Source: a phage. From it: a stretch of 64,000 nt of DNA. Each line of letters begins with the position of its first letter. The first letter of the stretch is position 1. Positions 24,408 through 59,710 of this stretch are shown here, one piece after another. The stretch lies in sequence record PZ445454.1. One strand, written 5' to 3'. Both the position numbers and the translations under genes were made by a program. Below the pieces are notes generated by a model. That model was not told the origin of the DNA. It made no database searches and was given only the letters and a program-made list of their open reading frames with translations.

Positions 24408-24408
24408 A

Positions 24409-25733: not shown

Positions 25734-25740
25734 TCACCTA

Positions 25741-26100
25741 TTATGGGAACAAGCACTTAATGTCATCGTTTTTGAAAACAAAACTTGTGTAGTTATGACC
25801 ATCAACATCCAGCCAAACAGCCTGAACATCCACACCATCAAGATTTTGGTAAAGCTCTTTGATGAAGTGGTCTTTTACAATCTGACTGCTAGTTGTTTCC
25901 AACTTAATGTTCGAGATTGCTGAACCTACAGCCATATAGCCCATGACACGTTTCTTCTCAGTATGCTTAATCTTACCATCTTTGTAAGCCATAATGAGAT
26001 TGGAAAGAATCTTTACACCATAATACTTTTCAAGGTGAGTAGGTACACCATAAAAGCCTAATGCGAAGTTTTCAGAGTGGATAATGTTTTCACGTTTCAT
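25741..26100 (-). CDS. hypothetical protein
   Basis: 119-aa ORF. Confidence 0.45.
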   Translation of the reverse strand: MKRENIIHSENFALGFYGVPTHLEKYYGVKILSNLIMAYKDGKIKHTEKKRVMGYMAVGSAISNIKLETTSSQIVKDHFIKELYQNLDGVDVQAVWLDVDGHNYTSFVFKNDDIKCLFP

Positions 26101-26101
26101 A

Positions 26102-26401
26102 TTAATCTGCCAACCTTAAATTGAAATTAACACCAAATTTTTCACATACTTCCAACATATACTCAAGGGAGACGTTACCAGTGAGATGGATTATGTTGGA
26201 TACACGAGCCTGAGAGATACCACAAATTTTAGCAACTTGCTCTTGAGAAAGACCTCTTGATTTAATCTCTCTCTTAAAACGATGTGCAACAAAGTCTCTC
26301 ATTTCGTCTACATCCATTGGACAAATATAACTCTCCATTTCAGCCTCTCTATCAGCCTCCCAATCATCTTGTGGGGCATAAGGGTCAAAAACCTCATTCA
26401 T
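26102..26401 (-). CDS. helix-turn-helix DNA-binding protein (putative transcriptional regulator)
   Basis: LSQEQVAKICGISQARVSNI HTH motif; start chosen at internal ATG (MNEVFD) with RBS GGAAGAAGAAAG; track ORF extends to 26431. Confidence 0.5.
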   Translation of the reverse strand: MNEVFDPYAPQDDWEADREAEMESYICPMDVDEMRDFVAHRFKREIKSRGLSQEQVAKICGISQARVSNIIHLTGNVSLEYMLEVCEKFGVNFNLRLAD

Positions 26402-26606
26402 CTTTCTTCTTCCGTTTGCGTGAAGTATCAATCAATGAATCTATATTTGTAGCCCTAACCTTTTCACGTTCATCATTAAGATAATCATCAAGAGCCTTTT
26501 CAATCTGTGAATCATCTTGACAAATGACTGTAAAGACTGTAAAGCCGTCTGTATCATCAATTATCTTACCATAACCGCTTCTGGGATGTAACTTTTTAAG
26601 AGCCAT
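26394..26606 (-). CDS. hypothetical small protein with basic C-terminus
   Basis: 70 aa; ends RKRKKKDE. Confidence 0.4.
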   Translation of the reverse strand: MALKKLHPRSGYGKIIDDTDGFTVFTVICQDDSQIEKALDDYLNDEREKVRATNIDSLIDTSRKRKKKDE

Positions 26607-26607
26607 A

Positions 26608-26991
26608 TCAAATACCTGTGCAGCTTCTGTTTTCTAAGAAATACTCAACACCATACATAGCTTTTTGCATCAAATCTTCTTTAAACTGGATACGATGATT
26701 GAGCATAACCTGTACATCAATATCATCATGGTGTTTCTCTTTAATATTTGCAGATTGCAGGAAATACTCTGCAAGAACGCGATACTGGTAGTCAGTCACC
26801 TTATCAGTCATCTCTGTCAAAGACTCTTCAGAGATTGGTTTAAGTAACTCACCTTTAGATAGCGCAACACCTTTAACAATCTGGCAAGTGTCTTCTGGAA
26901 CACCTGATAAGTCCACATTTGGAAGTTCTGTTGCATTAACTGGTAAATTCATTGCCATAACCATTGCAGCAGCTAATAAAACCTTTTTCAT
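26608..26991 (-). CDS. predicted secreted/periplasmic protein
   Basis: 127 aa; N-terminal signal peptide MKKVLLAAAMVMAMNLPVNA. Confidence 0.5.
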   Translation of the reverse strand: MKKVLLAAAMVMAMNLPVNATELPNVDLSGVPEDTCQIVKGVALSKGELLKPISEESLTEMTDKVTDYQYRVLAEYFLQSANIKEKHHDDIDVQVMLNHRIQFKEDLMQKAMYGVEYFLENRSCTGI

Positions 26992-27110
26992 AATGACCTC
27001 AAAGTTATATTAAATTTTGTATTACATTGAGTATAAAAATAAGCTATAACACCTGACTTGTCAACAGATTTTATAGCTTATTTGGCAGATTTTTTATAAG
27101 GCTACTGCCA

Positions 27111-27204
27111 TCCTTCCATACCTTACCTTACCACACCTAACCATACCTAACCATACCTAACCATACCTAACCATACCTAACCAAACTACACCATACAATA
27201 CCTT
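27111..27204. repeat. tandem 10-bp repeat array (CCATACCTAA, 4 perfect copies plus about 5 degenerate)
   Basis: read directly: tccttccata ccttacctta ccacacctaa (ccatacctaa)x4 ccaaactaca ccatacaata. Confidence 0.85.
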
Positions 27205-27270
27205 GTTAAAAGACCCTCTTAAAAGACCTTTTAAAAAGGTAAGTCTCATTTTAATGTAGTTGAGACTAAC

Positions 27271-27330
27271 TACCCATACCAAACAGCACCGCACTATGCC
27301 TTACCCCACCTCACCGAGCCTCGCCCCACA
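27271..27330. repeat. C/A-rich low-G tract (plus strand) in otherwise AT-rich genome
   Basis: tacccataccaaacagcaccgcactatgccttaccccacctcaccgagcctcgccccaca. Confidence 0.6.
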
Positions 27331-27410
27331 TCACTTAAAAACCCTTTTCAAAGACTCTTAAGTGATGCTGGTGAGTACCCGTTGGTTTATGCTGCTCAGT
27401 ATACTCACCA
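27329..27410. promoter_or_regulatory. pair of inverted repeats (10-bp catcacttaa/ttaagtgatg; 9-bp tggtgagta/tactcacca)
   Basis: read directly; arms separated by about 19 and 24 nt. Confidence 0.6.
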
Positions 27411-27431
27411 AATTTTCTATGTCAACAACTT

Positions 27432-27578
27432 TTATATAAAAGTCCTGATAGCTATATGTGTTACAAAACAGAAGATTGTGAACAAGACACCCATTGCAAA
27501 GGATGTGTTCAAAAGTTTACTTGTTATGTAAGACAACACAAAGATAACTAATGCAAATAGTATGATTATGCTTAGCAT
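27432..27578 (-). CDS. possible 48-aa hydrophobic peptide downstream of ligase
   Basis: ATG 3 nt after ligase stop; translation MLSIIILFALVIFVLSYITSKLL...; no clear RBS, below ORF-track size cutoff. Confidence 0.25.
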   Translation of the reverse strand: MLSIIILFALVIFVLSYITSKLLNTSFAMGVLFTIFCFVTHIAIRTFI

Positions 27579-27581
27579 AGT

Positions 27582-28685
27582 TTACTCATAATCCCTAATA
27601 ACTAGTCCGACAGGGAACTGTAAAGAACCCTTACGAGTCATCTTCTGGAACTGAACCGTTAAAGGCTTCCCGATAAACTCATCAGGATGCTCAGCAAGAT
27701 ACTGTTTCTTCTCATGAGTAGTCTTCCATGAGACATCTACAAAGACGTTAGGAAGAGTCTCTACAACGAACTTACCATGACCACGTTTATCGGTCTTTAC
27801 ACCAGTCACTTTAAACTCTTCAGTGTGCATCTTCTTGTGCTTAATCAAGAAGTATGAACGGTGACCACACTCATAGAAGGAGTCTTCAGAGATTGAACGG
27901 TACATTGCACCTTCAAACTTGGCTTCAACCCACTTATCATGAGCTTCATCAAACTCTTCCCAAGAATTTACACGACGAGATTTAACAGGGACAACTTTAC
28001 AGCCATCTCTAAAGTCATTCAATGGTGAAGTCTCAATAATATCTCTACGCTCAGGCCACGTTTTAGTACTGTCACAGATATCATACCAGTAGAACTTAAG
28101 TAAGTGTCTGTCAGGATTGTCTTCATTTTTAATCATGGAGACAATATCTTCTAAGTCCCACCCATGAGCATAAATCTCTCCATCAAATTCATCAACATCT
28201 TTGTGGAGCCTTAACATTGCCATAATGTCAGGTATTAGTTCAGTAGGGATTTTGTAAACAGTATTCTCACGAGAATATGCTGTAAATACACTGCCAATAC
28301 TTAAGTGTCTTGAAATTCTACAACGTACACCATCAAGTTTTGGTTGAGCATCAGCAGGGAACTTCAGATACTTTGCATGACTAACCTTTGCAGCGTCATG
28401 AGCAAGCTGTACACCTACCTTTTCAGTATTCTGTGCAGACTCTTTTGTGTAAGCATAACCTTTACGGTCAACTTGCTTTTTATACTTAGCAGCAACTTCA
28501 AAGAGAGCTTGCTGTTCAGCGTTACGCTCATTCTTTTTACCGATGTTTTTCGGTTCTGCTGTATACTCTTCAAACATCATCTTGCCATTTTCTTTACCGT
28601 AGGTTGTAATAACTTTGTCACCTACAGCAACGCATGACCAGACGTTAAAAGAGCCATCTTTATTTTGTTTGTACAGAATTGTCAT
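27582..28685 (-). CDS. lig: ATP-dependent DNA ligase
   Basis: adenylation motif I KLDGVRC (KxDG); start chosen at MTILYK with RBS AGAGGT; track ORF extends to 28721. Confidence 0.7.
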   Translation of the reverse strand: MTILYKQNKDGSFNVWSCVAVGDKVITTYGKENGKMMFEEYTAEPKNIGKKNERNAEQQALFEVAAKYKKQVDRKGYAYTKESAQNTEKVGVQLAHDAAKVSHAKYLKFPADAQPKLDGVRCRISRHLSIGSVFTAYSRENTVYKIPTELIPDIMAMLRLHKDVDEFDGEIYAHGWDLEDIVSMIKNEDNPDRHLLKFYWYDICDSTKTWPERRDIIETSPLNDFRDGCKVVPVKSRRVNSWEEFDEAHDKWVEAKFEGAMYRSISEDSFYECGHRSYFLIKHKKMHTEEFKVTGVKTDKRGHGKFVVETLPNVFVDVSWKTTHEKKQYLAEHPDEFIGKPLTVQFQKMTRKGSLQFPVGLVIRDYE

Positions 28686-28878
28686 TTTTAACCTCTGAGT
28701 GATACCAAGTGTAACAAGCATTACATGCGTAAAGCTCTAAGTCATTTTTATCTGGTTTATGGAAACAGTTTGACCCACAACGACACCGGAATAGTTTACC
28801 ATCAACACGAAGAATGAATGTTTCAAGCTCACCATCTTCTGTAAGAACTGCGTTCTTAAGTTTATCTTCTACAGTCAT
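28660..28878 (-). CDS. small zinc-ribbon protein
   Basis: 72 aa; CRCGSNC ... CNAC. Confidence 0.45.
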   Translation of the reverse strand: MTVEDKLKNAVLTEDGELETFILRVDGKLFRCRCGSNCFHKPDKNDLELYACNACYTWYHSEVKNDNSVQTK

Positions 28879-29081
28879 TTTCTCTTACCACCAATCTCTA
28901 CGTCAATCACTTGAACATCACCAGCAACATCAAACTTATGAATGATGCTTTCCACAGTGTAAGTCCAACCCTCGATTCGAACCAACTCACCTTCTCGTGG
29001 GACGATTGGGTTACGTTGAGCTACGGTTGTAGTGGAGTGAACAACATCATAACAGTAGATATAGTTTACTAGGACTTCCAT
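28875..29081 (-). CDS. hypothetical small protein
   Basis: start set at internal Met (MEVLVNY) preceded by GAGG; track ORF extends to 29180. Confidence 0.4.
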   Translation of the reverse strand: MEVLVNYIYCYDVVHSTTTVAQRNPIVPREGELVRIEGWTYTVESIIHKFDVAGDVQVIDVEIGGKRK

Positions 29082-29091
29082 CTTGAAAACC

Positions 29092-29328
29092 TCACTCAAT
29101 AACAGTAGTGTGTGATTGACCATTTTTGCCATAGCTATAAGATGTTGTTGTTTGAGAGTTTGGGCATCTGACAACAACAATATCTCTGCTTATGGCATCA
29201 CCATGTAACTTATAGGCTCTGCAATCTTGCATCTCTGGTGGGAGGCTATAAGAAGCATTTTTGTCCTCGTAAGAGGGATTACAGCCAGATAGAAGGATAA
29301 CACTAAGCACAATTACTGCTTTCCACAT
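29092..29328 (-). CDS. predicted lipoprotein
   Basis: signal peptide with lipobox LLSGC; start at MWKAVIV. Confidence 0.5.
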   Translation of the reverse strand: MWKAVIVLSVILLSGCNPSYEDKNASYSLPPEMQDCRAYKLHGDAISRDIVVVRCPNSQTTTSYSYGKNGQSHTTVIE

Positions 29329-29341
29329 AATACTTCTCCTA

Positions 29342-29497
29342 TTACTGTTCACGATGTTCTACTTCTCTGTACGTTCGTCGATAGTTTATAATAAGCTGTG
29401 CTAACTCGTTGCTTTTAACACCTGAACGTAGAAGTTGCCAATCAAAACCTTTACCGACTCTTCCATACAAACTAAAGAATTTTACTTTGCGTTTCAT
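29342..29497 (-). CDS. possible small basic protein (51 aa)
   Basis: ATG preceded by GGAGATACCAAA; MKRKVKFFSLYGRVGKGFDWQLLRSG...; below ORF-track cutoff. Confidence 0.3.
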   Translation of the reverse strand: MKRKVKFFSLYGRVGKGFDWQLLRSGVKSNELAQLIINYRRTYREVEHREQ

Positions 29498-29514
29498 TTT
29501 GGTATCTCCAATAC

Positions 29515-29742
29515 TCAGATGTCAATGCTAATACGTTCACCCTTAAGGACTCCTGTACGGTCCCTTGCAATCTTACCGTCAACAATAAGGATATGTGCAG
29601 ACCTTAAAGATTCGCCATTAAAAGCTTTTACGAACTTACAAGGCATTACCACAATAGACATCTCCTGAATCAACTCTGGAGTATAGCAATTGTCGTGAAG
29701 TTGCTGAATAACGTCTGCAAGTGTCATTTTTGATGTCTCCAA
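29515..29742 (-). CDS. hypothetical protein
   Basis: 75-aa ORF in co-directional array. Confidence 0.4.
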   Translation of the reverse strand: METSKMTLADVIQQLHDNCYTPELIQEMSIVVMPCKFVKAFNGESLRSAHILIVDGKIARDRTGVLKGERISIDI

Positions 29743-29933
29743 TACTCAATATCAATAAGTTCTTGTGCAATACTTTTCAGATTACCTTTCAAGAAAACCT
29801 TCTCAGAACCTGAAAGAGATGAATTGTCAATTAGCCTGTTCATTCTCTCAAACAACTTCTGCTTACGGTTCTTGATAGTTTCCTTTGAAGCACCTTTCAT
29901 CATCGCTGCATGGGTTCTTCCACGGTGGCTCAT
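29724..29933 (-). CDS. hypothetical small basic protein
   Basis: 69-aa ORF. Confidence 0.4.
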   Translation of the reverse strand: MSHRGRTHAAMMKGASKETIKNRKQKLFERMNRLIDNSSLSGSEKVFLKGNLKSIAQELIDIEYWRHQK

Positions 29934-29984
29934 AAGCCCTCCTATACAAGATATAGTATAAGGTACTCTTCCCTGAGCACCTTG

Positions 29985-30512
29985 TCAACTTAGTTTTGCA
30001 AACTCTCCGTGGAGTTTAATAGCAGCTTCACAGTAAGCTTTATGGGCTTCTTCAGGTGTGTCATAGTAGCCTAATGACATCTTTTTACCTTTATAGCTTA
30101 TTTGCGCAAGCCACCTACCAGACTTCTTCTTCAGGCTTACACCCTTATAGCCTGATTTATTGGTAGATAGTTTGCTTTTATTCCAAGCACTTTGGCAGTC
30201 ATCTGCTTCTCTTAAGTTTACAACCCTGTTATCAAGGGAGTCCCCATTAATATGGTCGATAACACCTCTCGGTAGCCTACCATACACGTACAGCCATGCG
30301 AGTCTGTGTGCTTTATGTGCTTTCTTGTCAAAATAGATAGTAATCTGCTTATGACCAGTTGAGTCAATCTGGATGCTCCCCGCTACCTGTCCTGCGTACT
30401 TACTATTAAAGACTTTAACAGCCCTTGAGTCACCCTCTCTACGAAGCCAAGTAAAGACCCCTGTTTCGGGGTCATAGTGTAGTAGCTCCTTTAAACGTTC
30501 TTGTGTAATCAT
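29985..30512 (-). CDS. HNH homing endonuclease with AP2-type DNA-binding domain (freestanding)
   Basis: HNH region HRLAWLYVYGRLPRGVIDHINGDSLDNRVVNLREA; AP2-like YKGVSLKKKSGRWLAQISYKGKKMSLGYYDTPEEAHKAY; start at MITQER overlapping DNA polymerase stop. Confidence 0.65.
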   Translation of the reverse strand: MITQERLKELLHYDPETGVFTWLRREGDSRAVKVFNSKYAGQVAGSIQIDSTGHKQITIYFDKKAHKAHRLAWLYVYGRLPRGVIDHINGDSLDNRVVNLREADDCQSAWNKSKLSTNKSGYKGVSLKKKSGRWLAQISYKGKKMSLGYYDTPEEAHKAYCEAAIKLHGEFAKLS

Positions 30513-30551
30513 TTTGTCACCATTAATGCACTTCCAACCACGATTTACCAA
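29985..30551 (-). mobile_element. freestanding homing-endonuclease gene inserted at 3' end of DNA polymerase gene
   Basis: HNH-AP2 ORF abutting and overlapping polymerase gene end. Confidence 0.5.
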
Positions 30552-33252
30552 CCTTGCCAGTACCAGTTACCAGTGTTTCACTCTTTAGTCCTAAGTTCTT
30601 AGAGGCTTGCCCGTAATACCAATCAGTGACAGCCTTCACCTCTGCCGTCATACTTTCTGGGCATTCCCAACTCGTCTCGTCGTGATAGGAGCACAATAAA
30701 CGAGCACCTATAGCTGGTTTGCGACCGTTCAACTTCATCAAACCTTCGTCAATCATACGACGGCAAGCAAGGTTAATTGCCTCGTTCTGAATCTGACTTT
30801 CCGAACCCATGAGCAAATAATTCAATAACTTATGTGGAGATTTACACCACAACCAAGCTCCAGCAACCTTTACAAAACCCCCTTTAGAGATTGCAGCAGT
30901 CTTACCAAACACCTCTTCAAGTGCCTTTTTAGTTGCTTTGTAGTCAGCTTCCAAGTCATCTAACAGCTTCTTAATTTTAGGTAAACGAATAAAGTAAGTC
31001 TGTTTAGTCAGTGCGCCTTCCTGAGTAGTTGCAGCTTTAATCGTCTTAGCAAACTTCTCATCCCCTGCACCGAACAGTAGTGCATAGATACCATTCTTAG
31101 CTTTCTTACGACCTTTGCTAATCTCATGAAGAAGACTCTCATCCTGAGTAGCTCGACAAGTCAAGATGTCCTGCTCATCATTCAAGCTAAAGTAAATACT
31201 GTTCAGGGTGTGTGCATCAGTCCCTGAATAGACAACGTACAGGTCATTCTCAGAGTCATAGTGAAGGTACTTATCAATCTCTGGGTTGAGATACTCATCG
31301 AAGTGTTTGCAGTAATAGCGTCCATCTTCTTGACGAGTAAACTCAATTTCTTCTTTACCTTGCGTTACCGCTTTGGTGAAATCTTTATCACCCATAAAGT
31401 TACAAAGAAGAACTAACTGGGCTGAGTTCATGTCTACAGAGACAACGTTAGTACCTTCCTCACAAATCCACACTGCCCTCATTGGTTCCCCATAGACAGC
31501 AGCACCAGACGGTACGTTTACAATACCATATTGTGTCATACGTCCAGTTGAAGTACCAAACACCATTGCACCAGCACTAAGGCGACCATCAGGACGAATC
31601 TGGTTCAACCAACCTTTTTCATCATCCTTTGAGTTCTCAATAGTTCTGCGTCTGTGCATCAAAGTGTAGTATTTCGCAATCTTCTGTCCAAGCTCACCTT
31701 CAATCGTATCATAAGATGATTCAGTAAGTTTTGGTGAAGTACGGATTAAGCAAGGCTCAAGCAAATCTGTGTACTTCTTCACAGACCAGTTATGCTCAAT
31801 GTACTGTACACCTTCATGTTCAACATAACTCAAGCCACACCGCTCAACCATTTCCTGCCACTTAGGATGTTTTGTAATCATCTTTTTATTGTCTTTGAAA
31901 CGACAAACTTTGACAGGGCGACCATCAGAGTCTTTCTTGTAGTTCCAGTCATCTGGAATCCAACCAACTGATTTCAAGTAGTCTTTAACAACTGCTACCT
32001 GAGTCATACGAGAAACTTCAAACTCAATTGGTGTATACGGTGCATCAATCAAACCTGTGTAGCGACTTGACTCAAGTTCAAAGTGGTTAACAACGTGACT
32101 GTTATAATACTTCACAGTTTTAACTGTTTTTACTGGCTTCCAATCTTTGCATTTCTTACCCATCTTTGCATTCAACTCATTGCAAATTGCACGAGCATCC
32201 TTCATTGCTACAAAACCTTCCTTGTACTCTTCACCAGTTACAGTGTTGGTTGGTGTATAGCAATTCCTTTTTTCAATGTTAAAAATCTTTGTAGTTGGCT
32301 TACCAAATGGCTTGATTTCATATGTTTGCATCTCACCATTACGTACCTGCTGACGATACTTTGTCTTAGGGTACTTGGTAATTCTTTTCAGTCCATCTGC
32401 ATGACCAAATGTTTCAACATACTCATTCCAAGCTTTTGCAAACTCTTCTCCAGTGACTTTACCTTTGGTCTTAATAGTTGGAGGAAGATGTGGTTCAACC
32501 TCTGAAGCAAGCTCATTAGTCAACTTGTCAAGTTCCTTTACATGGAACTCCATAAGCTCTTTATCAGCTTTCCAACCATTAATAGCTTGTTGACTCATCC
32601 AGAAAGATGTTTCTTTAGCTCGCATGTAGGTTTCATAAGTATCTATACCACACTTCTTAAGCTTGAGATATTCATTATCAAGTGCCCGTTTAGTTTTGGC
32701 GTTAATACGAATATCTTCTACAACACGAGTGAAGATTTCTGCATTCCACACACCCCAATGCTCAATCTCTGGTTTACGAACACCAACACGAGCACCCCAT
32801 GCAGCCAAACCATGAGCACCTTTATAACCCTTTGGAGTTGGTCTATCCATCCACTGAACACGAGACTGGATAAGAGAGTCCTGAAAGAAATTACTCCACG
32901 GTTTACACTTTGGATTATCAAAGTTCCATAAATCCGGTGCAATGTGATTGAAAACCCACCAGTCATAACCGAGGCCATTATGGATACAAAGACGTTTTGC
33001 CTTTAACGCAAACTCAATACCTTCACGTAAACCACCCTTAATGTACTTAGTGTACTTGTGACCGAGGATAGGCTCATCTGTAAAGACCCATACAGGCGGC
33101 TCTTCATCGTCAGATTTATAGTCTGCAAAGGCCATTACGTGAACTTTAGTGAACTCAAGGAGTAAACCATCAGTTTCTGTATCACCAACCAAATGTAAGT
33201 TTTTAAAATCTACGTTTTCCATTTTTACTCCCTCTAAAACCATTAACCTCAT
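30523..33252 (-). CDS. DNA polymerase, family A, with 3'-5' exonuclease domain
   Basis: Exo I DTETDG; motif A-like VSVDMNSAQLVLL; motif B-like KAKNGIYALLFGAG; motif C-like YHDE; 909 aa. Confidence 0.8.
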   Translation of the reverse strand: MRLMVLEGVKMENVDFKNLHLVGDTETDGLLLEFTKVHVMAFADYKSDDEEPPVWVFTDEPILGHKYTKYIKGGLREGIEFALKAKRLCIHNGLGYDWWVFNHIAPDLWNFDNPKCKPWSNFFQDSLIQSRVQWMDRPTPKGYKGAHGLAAWGARVGVRKPEIEHWGVWNAEIFTRVVEDIRINAKTKRALDNEYLKLKKCGIDTYETYMRAKETSFWMSQQAINGWKADKELMEFHVKELDKLTNELASEVEPHLPPTIKTKGKVTGEEFAKAWNEYVETFGHADGLKRITKYPKTKYRQQVRNGEMQTYEIKPFGKPTTKIFNIEKRNCYTPTNTVTGEEYKEGFVAMKDARAICNELNAKMGKKCKDWKPVKTVKTVKYYNSHVVNHFELESSRYTGLIDAPYTPIEFEVSRMTQVAVVKDYLKSVGWIPDDWNYKKDSDGRPVKVCRFKDNKKMITKHPKWQEMVERCGLSYVEHEGVQYIEHNWSVKKYTDLLEPCLIRTSPKLTESSYDTIEGELGQKIAKYYTLMHRRRTIENSKDDEKGWLNQIRPDGRLSAGAMVFGTSTGRMTQYGIVNVPSGAAVYGEPMRAVWICEEGTNVVSVDMNSAQLVLLCNFMGDKDFTKAVTQGKEEIEFTRQEDGRYYCKHFDEYLNPEIDKYLHYDSENDLYVVYSGTDAHTLNSIYFSLNDEQDILTCRATQDESLLHEISKGRKKAKNGIYALLFGAGDEKFAKTIKAATTQEGALTKQTYFIRLPKIKKLLDDLEADYKATKKALEEVFGKTAAISKGGFVKVAGAWLWCKSPHKLLNYLLMGSESQIQNEAINLACRRMIDEGLMKLNGRKPAIGARLLCSYHDETSWECPESMTAEVKAVTDWYYGQASKNLGLKSETLVTGTGKVGKSWLEVH

Positions 33253-33282
33253 ACATTACTGCAAAAAATTATAAAAAGCAAG

Positions 33283-33312
33283 TTGACAATGTACTTGACA
33301 AGGTGTTAATCT
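33283..33312 (+). promoter_or_regulatory. tandem TTGACA -35-like hexamers in divergent control region
   Basis: agTTGACAatgtacTTGACAaggtgttaatct; -10 assignment ambiguous. Confidence 0.3.
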
Positions 33313-33394
33313 TTGCGAAGTGGGTTTTTACTTAAAAGGTTACTTAACAGTTTAACTATACAGATACTTTAAAACTCTTAAAAGATTATTTAAT

Positions 33395-33435
33395 AGCTTT
33401 TAAAAAGCTTTAAAGTATAACGTATAGAATACGTT
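33395..33435. promoter_or_regulatory. two palindromes (agctttt-a-aaaagct and aacgtat-aga-atacgtt, latter containing TAGAAT) 45-85 nt upstream of first plus-strand early gene
   Basis: read directly from sequence. Confidence 0.5.
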
Positions 33436-33479
33436 AAGATAAAAGATTAAAACTTAATAGTTACTTAAAAGAGGCTTAC

Positions 33480-33902
33480 ATGCAGAAAATGTTTGTTCAC
33501 CCAGACATAGCTGACTTTGTTAGAGCTTTGCAGAAGTTGGAAGAACTTGACATTGCTGCTCAACGGGAATATGCTCACCATCACAGGAGAATGGTTGATA
33601 TACAACATGAGATAGAGTTATCAGAAGACTATGAAGATGACTTAAAATGCTCTGTGTTTGAGCATATGAAAGATGTTGCTACGGCGAGACGTAAAGCTAA
33701 AGACACAGTTGCTTTACTAGATTCTCTTAAAAAGAGGTTGCAAAGTGGTACAGACCTGTGTAATCTAGCATCACTGATTAACGATGTTGAAACTTCTTGG
33801 GATAGGCACTATTATCCGCGTTCTGAAAAGACACTTGACTTTTCTTCATCAGAAAACTTAAAATGTTCTAGAAAGAAACTTAACCAACTGAGAGAGAAAT
33901 AA
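33480..33902 (+). CDS. hypothetical early protein
   Basis: 140 aa, charged/coiled-coil-like; RBS AAGAGG. Confidence 0.45.
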   Translation: MQKMFVHPDIADFVRALQKLEELDIAAQREYAHHHRRMVDIQHEIELSEDYEDDLKCSVFEHMKDVATARRKAKDTVALLDSLKKRLQSGTDLCNLASLINDVETSWDRHYYPRSEKTLDFSSSENLKCSRKKLNQLREK

Positions 33903-33903
33903 T

Positions 33904-34704
33904 ATGAATATCGATGTAGAAAAGATGCTTGAAGAAAAAGGTATTGACGAAGCGTTCTTAATCAATGCCGTAGAAATCATGGCTATGATTCTTCGTGGCA
34001 ACAACTACACAGAACAGTTTATGCCTGCAAGTTATAACTTGCCTGAAGACAAGTCTGATAACGGTGCTTTTGCAGAACAGGTCAACATGATGCTTTGCGA
34101 CAAAACACTCGCTTTAGCATCTATCGTTGTAGGTGTTGATGCTCTTGCAGAGTTCATTTTTTATGAGATGCAGAAAAATGACTATATTGCCATGACCACT
34201 GAAGAAAAAGACTTGCTACTACTCGCAGGTAATGATGAACTAATTGACCTGTTAATTTCATCAACAAGTGCTGTTATGGCTGCTCTTGAGAAGCGTATGG
34301 AAGAGAAACTTTCACGATATGAAAAGCTTGATTGGGGCGTAGAAGAATTAAGCCCACGAATCAAGGAGATTATCCAGCAAACTAAAGAGTCTTTGGAAGA
34401 AGCTGTTGAAAATGACTCTGTAGCTGATATAGAACCACTTCAGGTGAAAGTTGCACTGATGATTCCAGCTATCTCTACGATGATGAATATCGTTGCACTA
34501 ATCCAGCTTTCACAGATGATGGGTGTGAGTATTGAGTTCATTGAGGAGATGACTGGCGGTGTTAGTATGCAAGCAATCAATGATGTTTTGGTGAACATTG
34601 GTGCTTCAATCATTGAAGAGAAACTACGCATTAACTTCGGTGATGATTTTGTGAAGCAACTCTCAGCTATGGCTGAAAAAGAGTCTGCTGAGCAACTGCA
34701 CTAA
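33904..34704 (+). CDS. hypothetical acidic early protein
   Basis: 266 aa, strongly acidic. Confidence 0.45.
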   Translation: MNIDVEKMLEEKGIDEAFLINAVEIMAMILRGNNYTEQFMPASYNLPEDKSDNGAFAEQVNMMLCDKTLALASIVVGVDALAEFIFYEMQKNDYIAMTTEEKDLLLLAGNDELIDLLISSTSAVMAALEKRMEEKLSRYEKLDWGVEELSPRIKEIIQQTKESLEEAVENDSVADIEPLQVKVALMIPAISTMMNIVALIQLSQMMGVSIEFIEEMTGGVSMQAINDVLVNIGASIIEEKLRINFGDDFVKQLSAMAEKESAEQLH

Positions 34705-50346: not shown

Positions 50347-50832
50347 ATGAATTACATGGAGATTCGACCATTTGACACAGCTAATGGTGAAGGGGTTCGT
50401 GTAAGCCTCTTCGTAGCTGGCTGTAAACATCACTGTGAAGGATGCTTTAACAGGGAGTCTTGGAAGTTTAATGCTGGTAAAGAGTTTACCTATGCAAACC
50501 TCTACGGCATCATTAAGTTAATGGATGATAATGCTATCAGTGGGTTGTCAATACTTGGTGGGGAGCCTCTGGATGACAGAAACATTCAAGAGGTCACCAA
50601 CATATGCAAGCGTATTAAAACTGTTTATCCAGAAAAGTCTATATGGCTTTGGACAGGTTTTCAACTGCACGAAAAAATCCACTTAGATGTGATGAAATAT
50701 GTTGACGTGGTGATTGATGGTAAGTATGATTCATCTAAACCAACAGTTAAACCATATCGTGGTTCTGATAACCAAAACCTCTGGAGAAAAGAGTATGGAT
50801 GGCAAGGCGATTGTCAGTGGAGAGCAGAGTGA
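50347..50832 (+). CDS. nrdG: anaerobic ribonucleotide reductase activating protein (radical SAM)
   Basis: CKHHCEGCFN radical-SAM-type cysteine cluster; about 160 aa. Confidence 0.65.
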   Translation: MNYMEIRPFDTANGEGVRVSLFVAGCKHHCEGCFNRESWKFNAGKEFTYANLYGIIKLMDDNAISGLSILGGEPLDDRNIQEVTNICKRIKTVYPEKSIWLWTGFQLHEKIHLDVMKYVDVVIDGKYDSSKPTVKPYRGSDNQNLWRKEYGWQGDCQWRAE

Positions 50833-51675: not shown

Positions 51676-51687
51676 ACAGATACTATA

Positions 51688-51716
51688 AGGGGACTGTAAA
51701 GGTTCCCTTTTATTTT
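51688..51716 (+). terminator. rho-independent terminator (weaker)
   Basis: gggac..gttccc stem with G-U pair then TTTTATTTT. Confidence 0.4.
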
Positions 51717-51725
51717 GGAGATGAT

Positions 51726-52241
51726 ATGTATCTGTCAAACCTAAAACGTTCTGCTGCAATGTCAGTGCTAAGACTCAGCTTTGAGGAACGTCAAGAGTTC
51801 ATTGACTCCCACCAATACGACCCTTCTAACTCCAATCACATGATTCTCTGGAATCGTGGCAGTACTCGTGAAAGAGCACTATTCCGTTACTACCCGCATT
51901 ACACCATAGATAACCTGTATGAGTGTTTTGTTGTGAAGAACACCATTACAGTACTCAATAAACTTTGCAGATACACAGGTAGTCAATCCTTCACATTAGG
52001 CCACCACAAACCTGTTACAAAGGGTGGTGAGCATCACTGTGCAAACTGGTTTATCCAGACTAAACTTGATAACCAGAAGCAAGGGGATAACCTTCTAAGC
52101 ACACCTAAGATGACCTATGAAGAGCAAGAGAAATATATCAAAAATAATATGCCAGGTGTGCTTGACAACAACTATACAGATTTGGCAATATCTCTCCTGT
52201 TGAAGTTCGAGACAGTTTATAGGGCAACTTACAATGGCTAA
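51726..52241 (+). CDS. HNH-like nuclease (candidate)
   Basis: LGHHKPVTKGGEHHCANWFIQTKLDNQKQGDN fits an HNH-type core. Confidence 0.35.
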   Translation: MYLSNLKRSAAMSVLRLSFEERQEFIDSHQYDPSNSNHMILWNRGSTRERALFRYYPHYTIDNLYECFVVKNTITVLNKLCRYTGSQSFTLGHHKPVTKGGEHHCANWFIQTKLDNQKQGDNLLSTPKMTYEEQEKYIKNNMPGVLDNNYTDLAISLLLKFETVYRATYNG

Positions 52242-52512
52242 AGAGAAGTGGGAGATTTTACCATTAGTCAGTGAAGGTGGTAATGGTTGTGAAATGTACA
52301 TGATACGTGGTCATGTTCCAGAACCAATTGCGCTTGAGATGGTAAACAACTTTACAGATGGCTCTTACAAAGACTTAGGGGAGCCAACTATAAAGCAGCA
52401 ATGGGTAAAGCCTGTACCAGACAGCACAGGTAACTGTAGTGTACTTTATCACGTTGTAGACCCTGCAAAATGCAAATCTGCAATGGCAGTAACAAACGTA
52501 ACTTTTGATTGA
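52234..52512 (+). CDS. hypothetical protein
   Basis: 92-aa ORF. Confidence 0.4.
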   Translation: MAKEKWEILPLVSEGGNGCEMYMIRGHVPEPIALEMVNNFTDGSYKDLGEPTIKQQWVKPVPDSTGNCSVLYHVVDPAKCKSAMAVTNVTFD

Positions 52513-52523
52513 GAGATAAAACT

Positions 52524-53405
52524 ATGAAAACTGTTATTGAAGCCGTCGTCACCGCACAAGAGAAATTCTTCCACACAGAAAAATTCAATATCATTCAATT
52601 CCCATCTGGAGAAATTGGTGGAAACTTCTCTGAAGATTTTGTTAAGTTTACTGAGCGTAATGCTGGTAAGATTGATAATGTTATAATTACTGTACAGGGA
52701 TATGACAAAGATACACTGTTTGCATTAGCTTTGGCTAAGGATGCCGTTGACAGTCTTGTTCCCCAGAAATCAGCGATGAAAACCATTGTTTTCGGGTTCT
52801 TACCAAATGCTCGATATGACCGCCACATGTTCAAAGGTGATGCAGCAGCACTGAAAGTCTTTGCCAACCTAGTTAATGCAATGGGTTTTGATGCAGTATG
52901 TGCTCTTGACCCTCACAGTAATGTTGCAGAAAACTTATTTAAGTGCTTTCAAAGCATGAAGCAAAAAGATGTGGCAGTACACTTTGCAAGTGACCCACGC
53001 ATTGATTTCTTGGTAGCCCCAGATGCAGGTGCAGCTAAGAAGACTGAAGACACCGCTAAAGAGGTGGATAAACCGTATATCACAATGTCTAAGGTGCGCA
53101 ATCTTAAGACTGGAGAAATTACTGGTATGCGAATCCTTGATGATGTTGATTTGACAGATAAAACTGTCATGATTCTGGATGATATTTGTGATGGAGGCCG
53201 AACCTTCGTAGAGGCAGCGAAACACCTACGCGAAGCAGGTGCAAAACGTGTGGAACTCTATGTAACACATGGAATTTTCTCTAAAGGTGTTGAAAACTTG
53301 CTTGACAACGGAATCGACCATATCTACACTACAAACACTTTAGGTGAAGCTAAAGACCGTGGCTTAACACATTACGGTCAAGTGACTGTAGCAACCATTG
53401 ACTGA
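52524..53405 (+). CDS. ribose-phosphate pyrophosphokinase-like protein (Prs family; possible ADP-ribose pyrophosphokinase of an NAD+ reconstitution pathway)
   Basis: type I PRTase fold signature VMILDDICDGGRTFVEAA; start at ATG with RBS GAGAG (track ORF starts 52509 at TTG); adjacent to NadV-like gene. Confidence 0.6.
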   Translation: MKTVIEAVVTAQEKFFHTEKFNIIQFPSGEIGGNFSEDFVKFTERNAGKIDNVIITVQGYDKDTLFALALAKDAVDSLVPQKSAMKTIVFGFLPNARYDRHMFKGDAAALKVFANLVNAMGFDAVCALDPHSNVAENLFKCFQSMKQKDVAVHFASDPRIDFLVAPDAGAAKKTEDTAKEVDKPYITMSKVRNLKTGEITGMRILDDVDLTDKTVMILDDICDGGRTFVEAAKHLREAGAKRVELYVTHGIFSKGVENLLDNGIDHIYTTNTLGEAKDRGLTHYGQVTVATID

Positions 53406-53415
53406 GATTTTATAG

Positions 53416-53435
53416 GGGCTTGAAAGCCCCATTTT
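53416..53435 (+). terminator. rho-independent terminator
   Basis: ggggctt-g-aagcccc then ATTTT. Confidence 0.55.
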
Positions 53436-53450
53436 GAGAGAGACTAAAAG

Positions 53451-55232
53451 ATGACTAAATCACTTTACGCAGTACCAGCAGGTTTAAATGCAGATGCTTA
53501 CAAATCTGGTCATGTTTACCAGTACCCTAGTGCAACAGAATACTTGATGTTCAACCTGACACCACGTAGTGATAAATGGTTTAACAGCCCCTTAGCAATT
53601 GATGGTGTAGTGGCTTTTGGTATTCAGCGTTTTGTTAAAGATTACTTGATAGACCACTGGAACGCAACTTTCTTTGAGCGTGATAAAAAAGAAGCAATTG
53701 ACGAAATCTTAGAAGTCATGAATGGTGTTCTGGGTAAAGATGCTATCGGTCGAGAGCATTGGGAAGCACTTCACGACTTAGGCTATCTACCAGTTGAAGT
53801 ATATGCTGTAGAAGAAGGTACAGTTGTCCCTATGCGTGTCCCAATGATTGTCTTCCAGAACACTGTTTCAGGCTTCCATTGGGTAGCAGGTTATCTGGAA
53901 GATGCTTTCTCTGCTGAGATTTGGAAGGCTTGTACCATTGCAACTATTGCATTGCACTACAAACGCATCTGTAAGAAGTGGGCTGACCTTACTTGCGACA
54001 ATGACTTACATTTACCTTATCAGTGCCATGACTTTGCTATGCGTGGTATGTCCGGCTTTACTGATGACGCATTTAACGCTGTAGGCCACTTAACCAGCTT
54101 TAAAGGAACTGATAGCTTCCCTGCTGTGTATACGGCTAAACGAATATATGGACAGTCTTACCCAATCTCTGATATTGGTAGTTCTGTACCAGCCACTGAG
54201 CACTCTGTAATGTGTGCAAACATTGCTTGGGAAGGTGGTAATGAGTTGATTGAAGAAGAAAGACGCTTTAAAGGTGAGTTGCAAACCTTCCGTCGTTTCT
54301 TAACAGAAACTTACCCAACTGGTATTGCAAGTATTGTTTCAGATACTTATAACTTCTGGAGAACCGTGTCAGAAATCTTGCCAGCACTTCGTAAAGAAAT
54401 TATGGAACGTGATGGTAAGCTGGTAATTCGCCCTGACTCTGGAGACCCTGTACATATTGTCACAGGTTATAAAGCAATCCACTTAGAGTGTGCTAAGAAG
54501 GCTTATTACGAGCATCTAAGCAAGCTGGAAGCTAGTGACACAATGTTGGATGCTGTTCTGAACATGAAGCTTGAAAACATCAGCTATGGTATTGCTGGAT
54601 GGCTACTATCAGAAGGCTACGAAATGGTTGTTGACAGAGAAGACTTTGAAGTTGCTGATACAGTGATGTTGAAAAATGCTTATATGGTTGGTTCTGCAAA
54701 CGTTGTAACACGTCCTGTAGCTGAGATTGATGGAGCTATTAAGACACTGTACAACATCTTTGGAGGAACTACTAACTCTAAAGGGTTTAAGGTGCTGGAT
54801 GAGCATATCGGCCTTATCTATGGTGACTCTATCACGCTGGAACGTGCAAACGAAATCCTGAAGCGTCTGTATGAAATGGGTTTTGCAAGCTCTAACGTAG
54901 TGTTTGGTGTAGGCTCTTACACTTACCAGTACATGACTCGTGATACCTTTGCATTTGCTGTCAAAGCAACCCTTGCAAGCATTGGTGGTAAAGAGATTAT
55001 GCTTGCAAAAGACCCTAAAACAGATAGTGGTGTTAAGAAGTCTGCCTTTGGTGGTGTATCACCTATGTGGGATGGTGATAAGCTGAAAGCTGTAGATGGC
55101 TATGGATTCCAGAGTTTTGCAGATGTACTTGACCACCCAGCTTGTGCTTTACGTTTAGTCTTTAGTGACTCTGAGCAGTTCGGTTACACAACTCTTGGTG
55201 ATATTCGAAACAATATTGACAAGCAGCTTTAA
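53451..55232 (+). CDS. nadV: nicotinamide phosphoribosyltransferase-like protein (NadV/Nampt family)
   Basis: 593 aa; N-terminal LYAVPAGLNADAYKSGHVYQYP typical of Nampt/NadV; RBS AGAGAG. Confidence 0.65.
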   Translation: MTKSLYAVPAGLNADAYKSGHVYQYPSATEYLMFNLTPRSDKWFNSPLAIDGVVAFGIQRFVKDYLIDHWNATFFERDKKEAIDEILEVMNGVLGKDAIGREHWEALHDLGYLPVEVYAVEEGTVVPMRVPMIVFQNTVSGFHWVAGYLEDAFSAEIWKACTIATIALHYKRICKKWADLTCDNDLHLPYQCHDFAMRGMSGFTDDAFNAVGHLTSFKGTDSFPAVYTAKRIYGQSYPISDIGSSVPATEHSVMCANIAWEGGNELIEEERRFKGELQTFRRFLTETYPTGIASIVSDTYNFWRTVSEILPALRKEIMERDGKLVIRPDSGDPVHIVTGYKAIHLECAKKAYYEHLSKLEASDTMLDAVLNMKLENISYGIAGWLLSEGYEMVVDREDFEVADTVMLKNAYMVGSANVVTRPVAEIDGAIKTLYNIFGGTTNSKGFKVLDEHIGLIYGDSITLERANEILKRLYEMGFASSNVVFGVGSYTYQYMTRDTFAFAVKATLASIGGKEIMLAKDPKTDSGVKKSAFGGVSPMWDGDKLKAVDGYGFQSFADVLDHPACALRLVFSDSEQFGYTTLGDIRNNIDKQL

Positions 55233-55246
55233 AAGTATATGATAAG

Positions 55247-55268
55247 AGGCTCCTACGGGAGCCTTTTT
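55247..55268 (+). terminator. rho-independent terminator (UACG loop)
   Basis: aggctcc-tacg-ggagcct then TTTTT. Confidence 0.65.
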
Positions 55269-56157: not shown

Positions 56158-58524
56158 ATGCGCATGGTAAATGACCACGCAGAAGTGATTAAGAGTTCAA
56201 CTTCTTTGGAGACATCTCAAGCTCAGATTACAATGACACCTGAAATGTTCAGTCTTCTGAGTTCTGGTGTATATACCTTTAAAGAGAGGGCAGTGATTCG
56301 TGAACTGTCATGTAATGCAGTAGATGCTCAGAAAGAAGCTGGAAAAGAGAATATCCCGTTCCATGTGCATTTACCTACTCGTTTTGAGCCTTACTTTGAA
56401 GTCCGTGATTTTGGAACTGGATTGACTCATGATAAAGTTATGAGTTTGTATCTGAACTACGGGGCTTCTACGAAGAATGACTCTAATGATTACATTGGCG
56501 CAATGGGTATCGGCTCAAAATCCCCATTTGCAATTGCTCAGTCATTCACAGTATCTAGTTATGTTGATGGTGTTGTTAATAAGTACTCTGTTTACCTTGA
56601 GAATGGTATCCCTCAAGTAACTAAGCTTACTACTAACCCAACAAATGAACCCAATGGTTTAGCTGTACGTGTAGCAGTTGCTGACCACCGTATTTCAAAG
56701 TTCTTTGAAGAGGCTGGTCACGTATATTCATACTTTGCTGTAAAACCAGAAAGCAATATTGTATATGATGATGTGTTAGCAGATATGAACGTCATTGCCC
56801 GTGAAGAGGGTGTTTATGATGCTATGATTCATAAGCAAAGTTGGCGTTCTAGTGGTAACAGGACAGAGTTTAATGTGGTGATGGGTAACATTGCCTACCC
56901 TGTTAACATGGAAGCATTACTTGGTGATGATTTCTTCAAAGTCTTGCCAGAGTTTTTCCGTAGGAGTGTAGACCTTGTAAACATCTACATGCCTATTGGT
57001 TCAGTTGCTATAGCAGCTTCTCGTGAAGCATTGCAGATGAATGATACGACAAAAAATGTTATCATTGAGGCTACTAAAAAGATAACTGAAGCAATTACAA
57101 AGGATGTTATCAAGAAAGTTAATAGTCAACCTACACTCATGGATGCTGCACAGGCTTATGCTGAGTTACGTTTGAACTCACGAGAGATGTTTAATGCTGT
57201 GTGTCCGAAGCTGGAGTGGGGTGGCGTTAAGCTTGATTCTCTGGAAGAAGAATTACTAAACATTCGTCGTGGGATTATCTACGCAGAAGACGGCTCAGTC
57301 ATTTATGAACGTGACGGCAAAGGTAATATTAAGGTTGACAGTAAAGGAAACAACATTCCTAAAGTGGACTACCTATACAATCCAGTTGCTTATGTCAAGT
57401 TCAACTCTTTAGAGAGTAAGATTCGTGCAACAGCACTTTCCTACACTCAAGAGGCAAGTATGTTCAATATCTTTGGTGCAATGCGTAAAAGCCAAATTGA
57501 ACAGTTTTTGTTCGTGATTAATGACCGTCGCAATAAAAACGGAACTGAGAAGACTGTAGGACGCAATCAAATCTTGCGTGGTGCATGTCGAGACTACGCC
57601 AATGAGTCAAGTCTGTTTCACAGATACAATGGTATTGTGTTTGTTTTCTCGACTGAAAAAGAGCTAGATGACTTAATCAACCTACACAAACTTGATAAAA
57701 GCTTGTTAAAGATTGTGAAGATGTCTGATAAGGAACATCACTATCAGCGTAAAGAAGCTGTGAGGGGTGTTGTAAAACTCTGGAAAGCTGTTCCAGCAGA
57801 AGGTGTAGCTTCCTATAAAGAGGTTTCAGAGGACTTTGATACAATTGAAGAACCTCAGCTTTACATTAAGGCAGTTGGTGACACAGTTGATGGCGAATGT
57901 TTTTGCTCATCTCCAGAAGATGTAGCTAAGTCAGTCGCTAATGTTATAGGGAAGACAGTCTATGTTTTCCGAAAAGCAAATTGGAAAAAGATACCAGAAG
58001 ACTGGATTGAAGTAGATGAGAAACTATTGAATGACAGCCTAACTGATGTTCACTGGATTAATCATAACAGGTATATGACACGTATCTATATGAATGGTGT
58101 CCTTGACCTTACAAGTAGTTGGATTATTGCCAGAAACTTTACGTTTAATAACAAGAAGATTTCTCGCGGGTATTGCTATTCACGAGATACATACAAAACC
58201 ATCTTCTTAGAAGGTAATGAGAATGCTGTTGAGGCAATGTTTGGTAAGATTCAGTATGTGGCTGCACCGTTTGCATACACTTACACTATCAGTGTTCTTC
58301 AGGATTTGAAGTCATGCCTTGACAATGATACAAAACTGTACAAAAAGATTAAGAAAGCGGGTGACCGCATGGTTATCAAACTGACAAACTACCTTTCAAA
58401 AAGAAAACAAGAAAACTTCTTGCTTTCCCATTTAGATTGGAATAAAGTGTCACCCATCGAAGTGAGTAAGTTCTTAGGCTTTGATGTGAAGTGTGTTCCA
58501 GAAGGGACTACAATTTACGATTAA
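56158..58524 (+). CDS. rIIA: rIIA-like protein (GHKL/HATPase_c N-terminal domain)
   Basis: Bergerat-fold boxes: N box RELSCNAVDA, G1 box VRDFGTGL, G2 box GAMGIGSKSPF; 788 aa; followed by rIIB-like gene. Confidence 0.65.
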   Translation: MRMVNDHAEVIKSSTSLETSQAQITMTPEMFSLLSSGVYTFKERAVIRELSCNAVDAQKEAGKENIPFHVHLPTRFEPYFEVRDFGTGLTHDKVMSLYLNYGASTKNDSNDYIGAMGIGSKSPFAIAQSFTVSSYVDGVVNKYSVYLENGIPQVTKLTTNPTNEPNGLAVRVAVADHRISKFFEEAGHVYSYFAVKPESNIVYDDVLADMNVIAREEGVYDAMIHKQSWRSSGNRTEFNVVMGNIAYPVNMEALLGDDFFKVLPEFFRRSVDLVNIYMPIGSVAIAASREALQMNDTTKNVIIEATKKITEAITKDVIKKVNSQPTLMDAAQAYAELRLNSREMFNAVCPKLEWGGVKLDSLEEELLNIRRGIIYAEDGSVIYERDGKGNIKVDSKGNNIPKVDYLYNPVAYVKFNSLESKIRATALSYTQEASMFNIFGAMRKSQIEQFLFVINDRRNKNGTEKTVGRNQILRGACRDYANESSLFHRYNGIVFVFSTEKELDDLINLHKLDKSLLKIVKMSDKEHHYQRKEAVRGVVKLWKAVPAEGVASYKEVSEDFDTIEEPQLYIKAVGDTVDGECFCSSPEDVAKSVANVIGKTVYVFRKANWKKIPEDWIEVDEKLLNDSLTDVHWINHNRYMTRIYMNGVLDLTSSWIIARNFTFNNKKISRGYCYSRDTYKTIFLEGNENAVEAMFGKIQYVAAPFAYTYTISVLQDLKSCLDNDTKLYKKIKKAGDRMVIKLTNYLSKRKQENFLLSHLDWNKVSPIEVSKFLGFDVKCVPEGTTIYD

Positions 58525-58603: not shown

Positions 58604-59710
58604 ATGACTACTAAAACTAAAGCACAGATTGACGCAGAAATTTACGAACTGGTTAAAGAAGGTAAGCTGACTAAAACAGCTATTGCACAGAAGTTCAATA
58701 CTTCAACCCGTTCAGTTGGTCGTGCTGTAGAGCGTCATGAAGCAACCTTAAAAGGTAAGAAAAAGGTAGCTTCTAAACCAGCTACGAAGACTTTGAAGCA
58801 AGTTGCTAAATCAGTTAAAAAGAAAGCTGACAAGCCAGTTAAAAAGGCTGTTAAAGAGCCTGTACAGAAAGCTCCGGTAAATAAACTGCATGAAGCTATG
58901 CAGAATGGTAACCAGATTGAGTATATGATTACTGGCGATTCTGTTATCATGACTTTCGGTGCAGATTCTGAAATCGTTGAATCTACCCATCCGAACTACA
59001 AAGAAATTGTGATGGCTGTTGTATCCGGTGAGTATAAGAAAGCTTTCGAACTGATGAACATTCGTAAGTCTATCGAAAACTTCACTCAGGGTGCTATCAC
59101 CATCAAAGGTGATAAGCTATTCTATGGTGCTGTTGAGATGCGTTCTACTCTGGTTGACCGTATTCTTCACATGATGAAGACTGGTGATAAAGGTTTTGAA
59201 CGACTTGTAATGTTCTTCGAAAAACTGATGGAAAACCCATCTAAAGGTTCTGTAGAACAACTGTGGGGATTCATATCTCACCTTGATGTTGAAATTGATG
59301 AAGAAGGCTACATTATCGGTTGGAAAAAGGTACAAAGTAAAGCTGACGGTTCTCTGGTAGACAGCCACACCCATAAAGTACCTAATGACTTAGGTAACCT
59401 AGTTGAGATGCCTCGTTGGATGGTTGATAGTGACCCTAACCGCACTTGCTCTCAGGGTTTACATGTTGGTGCATGGGAATACGTATCATGTTTTGGAGGT
59501 GATACCATCCTGAAAGTTCGTGTCCACCCACGAGATGTTGTATCTGTTCCGATTGATTACAACGATATGAAGATGCGTGTATCAGCTTATGAGTCTTTTG
59601 CGATTGTTGACAGCAACCGTAAAGTTATCAAGACTCACTCTGGCTCTGGTGGTCATCGTGTAGTAATTGGTTCTCACGGCGAGTTAATCTCCAAGACACC
59701 ACGCGTTTAA
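58604..59710 (+). CDS. rIIB: rIIB-like protein
   Basis: 368 aa immediately after rIIA-like gene; strong RBS AGAGAG; C-terminal KVRVHPRDVVSVPIDYNDMKMR segment. Confidence 0.55.
   Translation: MTTKTKAQIDAEIYELVKEGKLTKTAIAQKFNTSTRSVGRAVERHEATLKGKKKVASKPATKTLKQVAKSVKKKADKPVKKAVKEPVQKAPVNKLHEAMQNGNQIEYMITGDSVIMTFGADSEIVESTHPNYKEIVMAVVSGEYKKAFELMNIRKSIENFTQGAITIKGDKLFYGAVEMRSTLVDRILHMMKTGDKGFERLVMFFEKLMENPSKGSVEQLWGFISHLDVEIDEEGYIIGWKKVQSKADGSLVDSHTHKVPNDLGNLVEMPRWMVDSDPNRTCSQGLHVGAWEYVSCFGGDTILKVRVHPRDVVSVPIDYNDMKMRVSAYESFAIVDSNRKVIKTHSGSGGHRVVIGSHGELISKTPRV

Follow-up and report, generated by a model that had tools for sequence, protein, structure and literature searches.

We analysed a 64,000-nucleotide stretch of phage DNA (sequence record PZ445454.1; the whole stretch is called the window here) in which two adjacent genes encode a protein with the fold of ribose-phosphate pyrophosphokinase (Prs) and a protein with the fold of nicotinamide phosphoribosyltransferase (Nampt or NadV). 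An earlier note, made from the sequence alone, had described a 293-amino-acid (aa) and an adjacent 593-aa protein of these folds, and both open reading frames are present as described, on the same strand. We call them by the names of the enzymes with which we identify them below:

52524-53405, + strand: adps (bas63_0079), 293 aa, Prs fold; public annotation, ribose-phosphate pyrophosphokinase
53451-55232, + strand: namat (bas63_0080), 593 aa, Nampt fold; public annotation, nicotinamide phosphoribosyltransferase

Counted from its first TTG, the open reading frame of adps is 52509-53405 (298 aa); the ATG at 52524 gives the 293-aa protein and is the start in GenBank. The two genes are neighbours on the + strand with a spacer of 45 nt, as expected of a gene pair of the NAD+ reconstitution pathway 1 (NARP1).

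Standard family libraries place both proteins among enzymes of phosphoribosyl pyrophosphate (PRPP) metabolism. Adps matches the Pfam families Pribosyltran (E = 8e-12, over aa 160-249) and Pribosyl_synth (E = 2e-10) and corresponds to PHROG 619, "ribose-phosphate pyrophosphokinase" (E = 2e-99). Within the Pribosyltran match lies a loop that had been quoted before and that we located from the translation:

53166-53204, + strand: PRPP-loop-type motif VMILDDICDGGRT of Adps, aa 215-227

Namat matches Pfam NAPRTase (E = 5e-35) and corresponds to PHROG 448, "nicotinamide phosphoribosyl transferase" (E = 2e-201). These family assignments are far above chance. Among the NCBIfam models, Adps passes the cut-off of TIGR01251, a broad subfamily model for ribose-phosphate diphosphokinase (E = 2e-40; score 138.5 against a cut-off of 113). 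By contrast, it falls far below the cut-off of every Prs equivalog model, by a factor of 3 to 9, reaching about a third of it or less (NF002095, 113.8 against 296; NF002320, 100.8 against 297; NF002844, 79.6 against 438). Namat passes the cut-off of PRK09198 (E = 3e-140; score 468 against 405). Comparison with profile hidden Markov models (HMMs), proposed earlier as a check on the pair, therefore sets Adps apart from Prs but does not separate Namat from Nampt. That separation comes from the clamp motif described below, which is of the Namat type.

Both proteins are identical to those of a phage that has already been studied experimentally. Adps is the same at 293 of 293 positions as QXV81770.1, which is "Bas63_Adps" in the supplementary tables (S1/S2) of Osterman et al. 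(bioRxiv 10.1101/2024.02.11.579819). An exact look-up in about 15 billion proteins gave QXV81770.1 for Adps and found Namat on a single contig of 87,100 bp, as QXV81771.1; both are proteins of Escherichia phage JohannRWettstein (Bas63). Over aa 1-399, Namat does not differ from MZ501086_00077, a protein classed as "Adps-associated" in Table S2 of Osterman et al. (399 aa compared). The neighbors bas63_0077, bas63_0081, rIIA (QXV81775.1), and rIIB (QXV81776.1) are also exact matches, each credited only to Bas63. The major capsid protein of the window has the same sequence as the Bas63 capsid of PDB 9NCF (368 of 368 positions), and a 450-aa structural protein of the window matches PDB 9MT4 over its full length (E = 2e-296); both of these entries come from the Bas63 cryo-electron microscopy study. 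The window also contains a sequence that was used to remove this locus from Bas63:

52847-52876, + strand: target of the Cas13a guide for the Bas63_79-80 knock-out (primer table of Osterman et al.); a single exact match, with 0 expected by chance

Megablast of the region returned 257 Felixounavirus records, the best of them at 96-97.5% identity. The phage collection used for this search does not hold the Bas63 record MZ501086, and this accounts for the lack of any DNA match above 97.5%. Because of the exact protein matches, the capsid, and the guide-RNA match, we take the window to be the Bas63 genome. Compared with the published Bas63 NARP1 locus, the protein sequences, the flanking genes, and the knockout-guide target are all the same and no difference is detectable. 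We give a probability of about 0.97 to the reading that the two genes are adps and namat of Bas63 and together are the prototype of NARP1. The suggestion in the earlier note that the pair is a NARP1-type Adps/Namat module, rather than a route to PRPP and nicotinamide mononucleotide (NMN), is thus borne out by 100% identity of both proteins to Bas63 Adps and Namat. The locus is already published as the type example of NARP1 and is not a new case.

The mechanism proposed for NARP1 starts with a host defense whose NADase (SIR2, TIR, or SEFIR domain) would break NAD+ down into ADP-ribose (ADPR) plus nicotinamide. Adps, which has a diverged Prs fold, would move pyrophosphate from ATP to the free ribose of ADPR to give ADPR pyrophosphate (ADPR-PP). 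Namat, which has a diverged Nampt fold with an adenine-binding clamp, would then replace the pyrophosphate of ADPR-PP with nicotinamide to give NAD+ directly. With NAD+ regenerated in this way, phage replication would go on.

Part of the published evidence comes from Bas63 itself. NARP1 came to light when genes 79-80 of Bas63, a Felixounavirus, were deleted (Osterman et al., bioRxiv 10.1101/2024.02.11.579819). On cells carrying SIR2-HerA, the delta79-80 phage formed about 20-fold fewer plaques and NAD+ was not maintained, and untargeted mass spectrometry detected ADPR-PP and its cyclic-phosphate breakdown product ADPR-cP only where wild-type Bas63 met the defense system (bioRxiv 10.1101/2024.02.11.579819). 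The counter-defense was independent of host pncC and nadR (bioRxiv 10.1101/2024.02.11.579819). In an independent genome-wide knockout study with PhageMaP, loss of g79 or of g80 alone made plating on Sir2-HerA drop by 1e4-1e6, a defect that complementation reversed; weaker effects were noted on the Ec86 retron and hhe (bioRxiv 10.1101/2024.10.10.617714).

The Bas63 protein "did not purify well", and the reactions were therefore established in vitro with the enzymes of the Bacillus phage SPbetaL1 (bioRxiv 10.1101/2024.02.11.579819). SPbetaL1 Adps converts ADPR and ATP to ADPR-PP and is, according to the authors, not a Prs; SPbetaL1 Namat makes NAD+ from ADPR-PP and nicotinamide and prefers ADPR-PP over PRPP; and the mutants Adps K162A and Namat R306G are inactive (bioRxiv 10.1101/2024.02.11.579819). 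Work with homologues further showed that type I Thoeris, DSR1, DSR2, or SEFIR no longer protects when NARP1 is co-expressed, whereas type II Thoeris still does. For Bas63 Adps and Namat, we infer the same reactions and residue roles by homology to these enzymes.

This homology can be followed at the level of single residues. In the SPbetaL1 Namat crystal structures (9W5W and 9W5X), adenine is held by a "selectivity clamp" in which a loop (SCL) is combined with a helix that bears the motif GS-X-phi-X-phi-X-phi-TRD (SCH). We mapped the contact residues through a HMMER alignment to 9W5W, and the offset was validated by finding the expected letter at all 20 named residues. Both parts of the clamp are located in the window protein:

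53562-53600, + strand: SCL clamp loop region PRSDKWFNSPLAI of Namat, aa 38-50, with K42-W43; K42 aligns with SPbetaL1 R40
54912-54944, + strand: SCH clamp helix motif GSYTYQYMTRD of Namat, aa 488-498; it matches the published motif definition

Of the 20 residues through which SPbetaL1 Namat contacts NAD+, 17 are the same in the window Namat. Four changes are listed from SPbetaL1 to Bas63: R40 to K42 (with W43 next to it), F392 to Y490, S190 to A196, and A362 to S460. According to the Namat structure paper, where a Lys stands at the R40 position it is the next residue that stacks on the adenine, and Bas63 Namat is given as an example. Judged from its sequence, the clamp loop of the window protein would therefore supply the adenine-stacking residue through K42-W43. 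The catalytic residues of Namat are present as R327 (R306 in SPbetaL1), D221 (D215), F195 (F189), and the catalytic His, H251. In Adps, the residue aligned with the catalytic Lys of the SPbetaL1 enzyme (K162) is K190.

Comparison with solved structures leads in the same direction. By sequence, the nearest solved relatives of Namat are SPbetaL1 9W5W and 9W5X (E = 1e-127), as compared with 1e-41 for mammalian NAMPT. An AlphaFold2 model of Namat (pLDDT 92.5) has 9W5X/9W5W as its best Foldseek match, with a TM of 0.94 on the target; the TM for NAMPT is about 0.9. Adps matches Prs structures with E values of about 1e-14 to 1e-18. The PDB holds no structure of Adps and we found no paper that describes one. 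As a known system, SPbetaL1 NARP1 (Adps, WIT26982.1; Namat, 9W5W/9W5X) has the same gene order as the Bas63 pair and shares with it the catalytic Lys of Adps, the 17 contacts, and the SCH motif. It differs in that Bas63 Namat carries an extra subdomain of about 85 aa (aa 340-426) and an insertion of about 15 aa at aa 258-272.

Several points weigh against our reading. The window is tied to Bas63 through proteins and the guide RNA rather than through a nucleotide alignment over the whole of MZ501086. In the literature we found no in vitro assay of Bas63 Adps or Namat, and the SPbetaL1 enzymes behind the biochemistry and the crystal structures are only about 37% (Adps) and 47% (Namat) identical to the window proteins over the aligned parts, with K42-W43 in the clamp loop where SPbetaL1 has R40. 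In vitro, Namat homologues retain the ability to form NMN from PRPP, and a degree of canonical activity is therefore possible. Also, the standard HMM libraries (Pfam, PHROGs, and NCBIfam) still name the proteins Prs and NAPRTase or Nampt.

The alternative that survives best keeps NARP1 and extends it. The pair could belong to NARP1-AP, which includes a Macro-domain ADPR-1''-phosphate phosphatase, or be coupled to RyDEP, and could then also counter aRES or Thoeris signaling. Such extensions lie in or next to the NARP1 operons of about 15% of NARP1 phages and occur in mycobacteriophage DyoEdafos, and two small genes of unknown function, g77 and g78, share a terminator-bounded block with adps and namat. 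By contrast, a Pfam hmmscan at E<=10 of the two genes on each side of the pair (g77, g78, g81, and g82) found no Macro (PF01661, PF14519, PF20016) or RyR (PF02026) domain, and adps and namat are directly adjacent with only the short spacer between them. The NARP1-AP of Vibrio phage Gary (Adps, the Macro-domain phosphatase Adpp, and Namat) has the core Adps/Namat chemistry in common with the Bas63 pair, which differs from it in having no Macro-domain gene inside or adjoining over the same two genes each side. Because the flanks lack Macro and RyR domains, we regard the locus as plain two-gene NARP1, not NARP1-AP or RyDEP-coupled, and consider an extended form very unlikely. By the published logic, the Bas63 pair should not rescue phage from aRES, which makes ADPR-1''-phosphate.

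A second alternative is ordinary salvage, in which Prs would make PRPP from ribose-5-phosphate (R5P), Nampt/NadV would join PRPP and nicotinamide to give NMN, and NAD+ would be completed by host routes through NadR or PncC. The family names, the passed cut-offs of TIGR01251 and PRK09198, and the NMN synthesis retained by Namat homologues all speak for it, and the folds, PRPP-type loops, and catalytic residues of the pair are as in canonical Prs and Nampt/NadV (E. coli or B. subtilis Prs and human NAMPT). However, the literature gives ADPR and ADPR-PP, not R5P and PRPP, as substrates of the NARP1 enzymes, and the published in vivo data already speak against salvage, with ADPR-PP detected in Bas63-infected cells. 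The SPbetaL1 homologue of Adps acted, in its authors' judgment, as an ADPR-pyrophosphorylating enzyme rather than a Prs, and the window proteins themselves add the missed Prs equivalog cut-offs and a Namat-specific adenine clamp motif. Together, these points leave ordinary salvage highly improbable.

A NARP2-type module, which would make NAD+ from PRPP, nicotinamide, and ATP by a Nampt like that of Vibrio phage KVP40 and a phage NMN adenylyltransferase (Nmnat), has practically no chance of being correct: NARP2 too restores NAD+ in infection with a Nampt-fold enzyme and nicotinamide, and the KVP40-type Nampt family is homologous to the second protein (weak tblastn matches to NadV of T4-like Vibrio and Klebsiella phages, up to about 28% identity), but NARP2 starts from PRPP, requires an adenylyltransferase, and lacks both Adps and the adenine clamp, whereas the Bas63 partner gene is Adps and not Nmnat, the two genes flanking the pair on each side gave no match to a nucleotidyltransferase or Nudix domain, and the second protein carries the Namat clamp motif and is the one listed as Adps-associated by Osterman et al.

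Two features of the Bas63 NARP1 proteins apparently have not been discussed in the NARP1 literature. One is the extra subdomain of Namat:

54468-54728, + strand: inserted alpha/beta subdomain of Namat, aa ~340-426, about 85 aa; a gap in the alignment to 9W5W

Namat of the Bas63 type is about 100 aa longer than SPbetaL1 Namat, and most of the excess is this insertion, which directly follows the RPDSGDP strand bearing R327 and D329. Felixounavirus-like relatives have it in varying lengths, and it is absent from 496-aa enterobacterial homologues, from SPbetaL1 Namat, and from the matching solved Nampt/NadV structures. AlphaFold2 predicts it with high confidence (pLDDT 92-96 in the full model and 89 when folded alone). 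A structure search with aa ~340-426 gave no match to a fold relative, and the Namat structure paper nowhere uses the word "insertion". The subdomain might serve docking or regulation, for instance by letting Adps pass labile ADPR-PP on to Namat.

The other feature is in Adps. Its N-terminal ~180 aa (window 52524-53063) form a sharply bounded mosaic patch among Felixounaviruses that are otherwise 95-98% identical. DNA identity to the Felixounavirus Alf5 is 63-83% in 52500-53100 as compared with 95-98% on either side of adps. In aa 1-190 of Adps, 61 of the codon differences between Bas63 and Alf5 are nonsynonymous and 54 are synonymous; in aa 191-293, the numbers are 3 and 23. Namat of the two phages is identical at 582 of 593 positions. 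In the phage collection, 47 records have Adps at >=95% identity as compared with 207 for Namat, and from this we conclude that Bas63 has a minority allele of the Adps N-domain. This domain might be an arms-race surface that is sensed or inhibited by some host factor. That the Namat subdomain and the Adps N-domain mosaic are functional adaptations, or carry a distinct function, we consider rather unlikely.

Signals for expression were also located around the genes. GAGAG-type Shine-Dalgarno sequences lie 8 nt 5' of both ATGs (52511-52515 for adps and 53436-53442 for namat), which agrees with the prior claim of a ribosome-binding site for each gene. That each gene also has its own terminator hairpin is correct for namat only. 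Three hairpins were found:

51687-51709, + strand: terminator-like hairpin upstream of the g77-g80 block, from the terminator scan; -13.6 kcal/mol; a terminator is annotated at the equivalent site of the related phage Tribble
53415-53430, + strand: intergenic G+C hairpin between adps and namat, GGGGCU/AGCCCC; RNA fold of -11.5 kcal/mol, z = -2.4
55244-55267, + strand: intrinsic-terminator-like hairpin 3' of namat, from the terminator scan; -17.1 kcal/mol followed by a U-run; Tribble has an annotated terminator at the equivalent site

The hairpin between the genes is followed only by AUUUUG (four U), was not called by the terminator scan, and has no terminator annotation in Tribble. It does not have the form of a canonical terminator and might act by attenuating read-through or by stabilizing the upstream message, though the pair is described as one operon. 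The outer two hairpins bracket g77-g78-g79-g80, and the annotated terminators in Tribble flank the equivalent four-gene block (window 51726-55232). A promoter scan gave 17 sites where 13.1 +/- 3.8 were expected, and we claim no promoter.

Within this block, bas63_0077 (g77) corresponds to window 51726-52241 by accession order, and bas63_0077 and bas63_0078 together span 51726-52512. In the PhageMaP study, gp77, labeled GIY-YIG, counters the Ec67 retron, and g84/g85 counter QatABCD (bioRxiv 10.1101/2024.10.10.617714). We did not reproduce the GIY-YIG label; gp77 has no Pfam match and only a weak match to a PHROG HNH endonuclease (E = 4e-4). The product of g78 (92 aa) has no annotation. Just downstream of NARP1 are an rIIA-like gene (56158-58524) and an rIIB-like gene (58604-59710), which are bas63_0084 and bas63_0085 by accession order. 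Given the reports on gp77 and g84/g85, NARP1 lies in a stretch, g77-g85, that is rich in reported anti-defense genes.

Upstream of the NARP1 block, 50347-50832 encodes a 161-aa radical-SAM protein (Fer4_12, E = 2e-43), a nucleotide-metabolism gene whose Alf5 counterpart is annotated as the anaerobic ribonucleotide reductase small subunit (activase). On the scale of the window, GC skew is negative in 24001-34000 (-0.07 to -0.21) and positive everywhere else. Because large minus-strand open reading frames (27582-28721 and 30523-33252) coincide with the negative skew, we interpret 24001-34000 as an oppositely transcribed gene block.

A related pair occurs in a bacterium. On Klebsiella michiganensis contig DAHJTQ010000013.1 (L008 4211-7491), a gene for a 289-aa Adps-like protein adjoins a gene for a 496-aa Namat-like protein. 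The former is 47% identical to the window Adps over 188 aa, and the latter has the clamp motif GSFTYQYNTRD. This pair is chromosomal, lies in a housekeeping neighborhood, and is divergent from the gene for an NrtR-type Nudix regulator. Its sequence and setting suggest a bacterial NARP1-like operon next to a regulator of NAD metabolism. It fits published remarks that some bacteria have NARP1 outside mobile elements.

The identification of the locus by itself brings no new biology. What it identifies is NARP1, a phage pathway of two previously unknown reactions that neutralizes an entire class of NAD+-depleting defenses (SIR2-HerA, type I Thoeris, DSR1/2, and SEFIR), and the labels "Prs" and "NadV" are misleading in about 4% of phage genomes.

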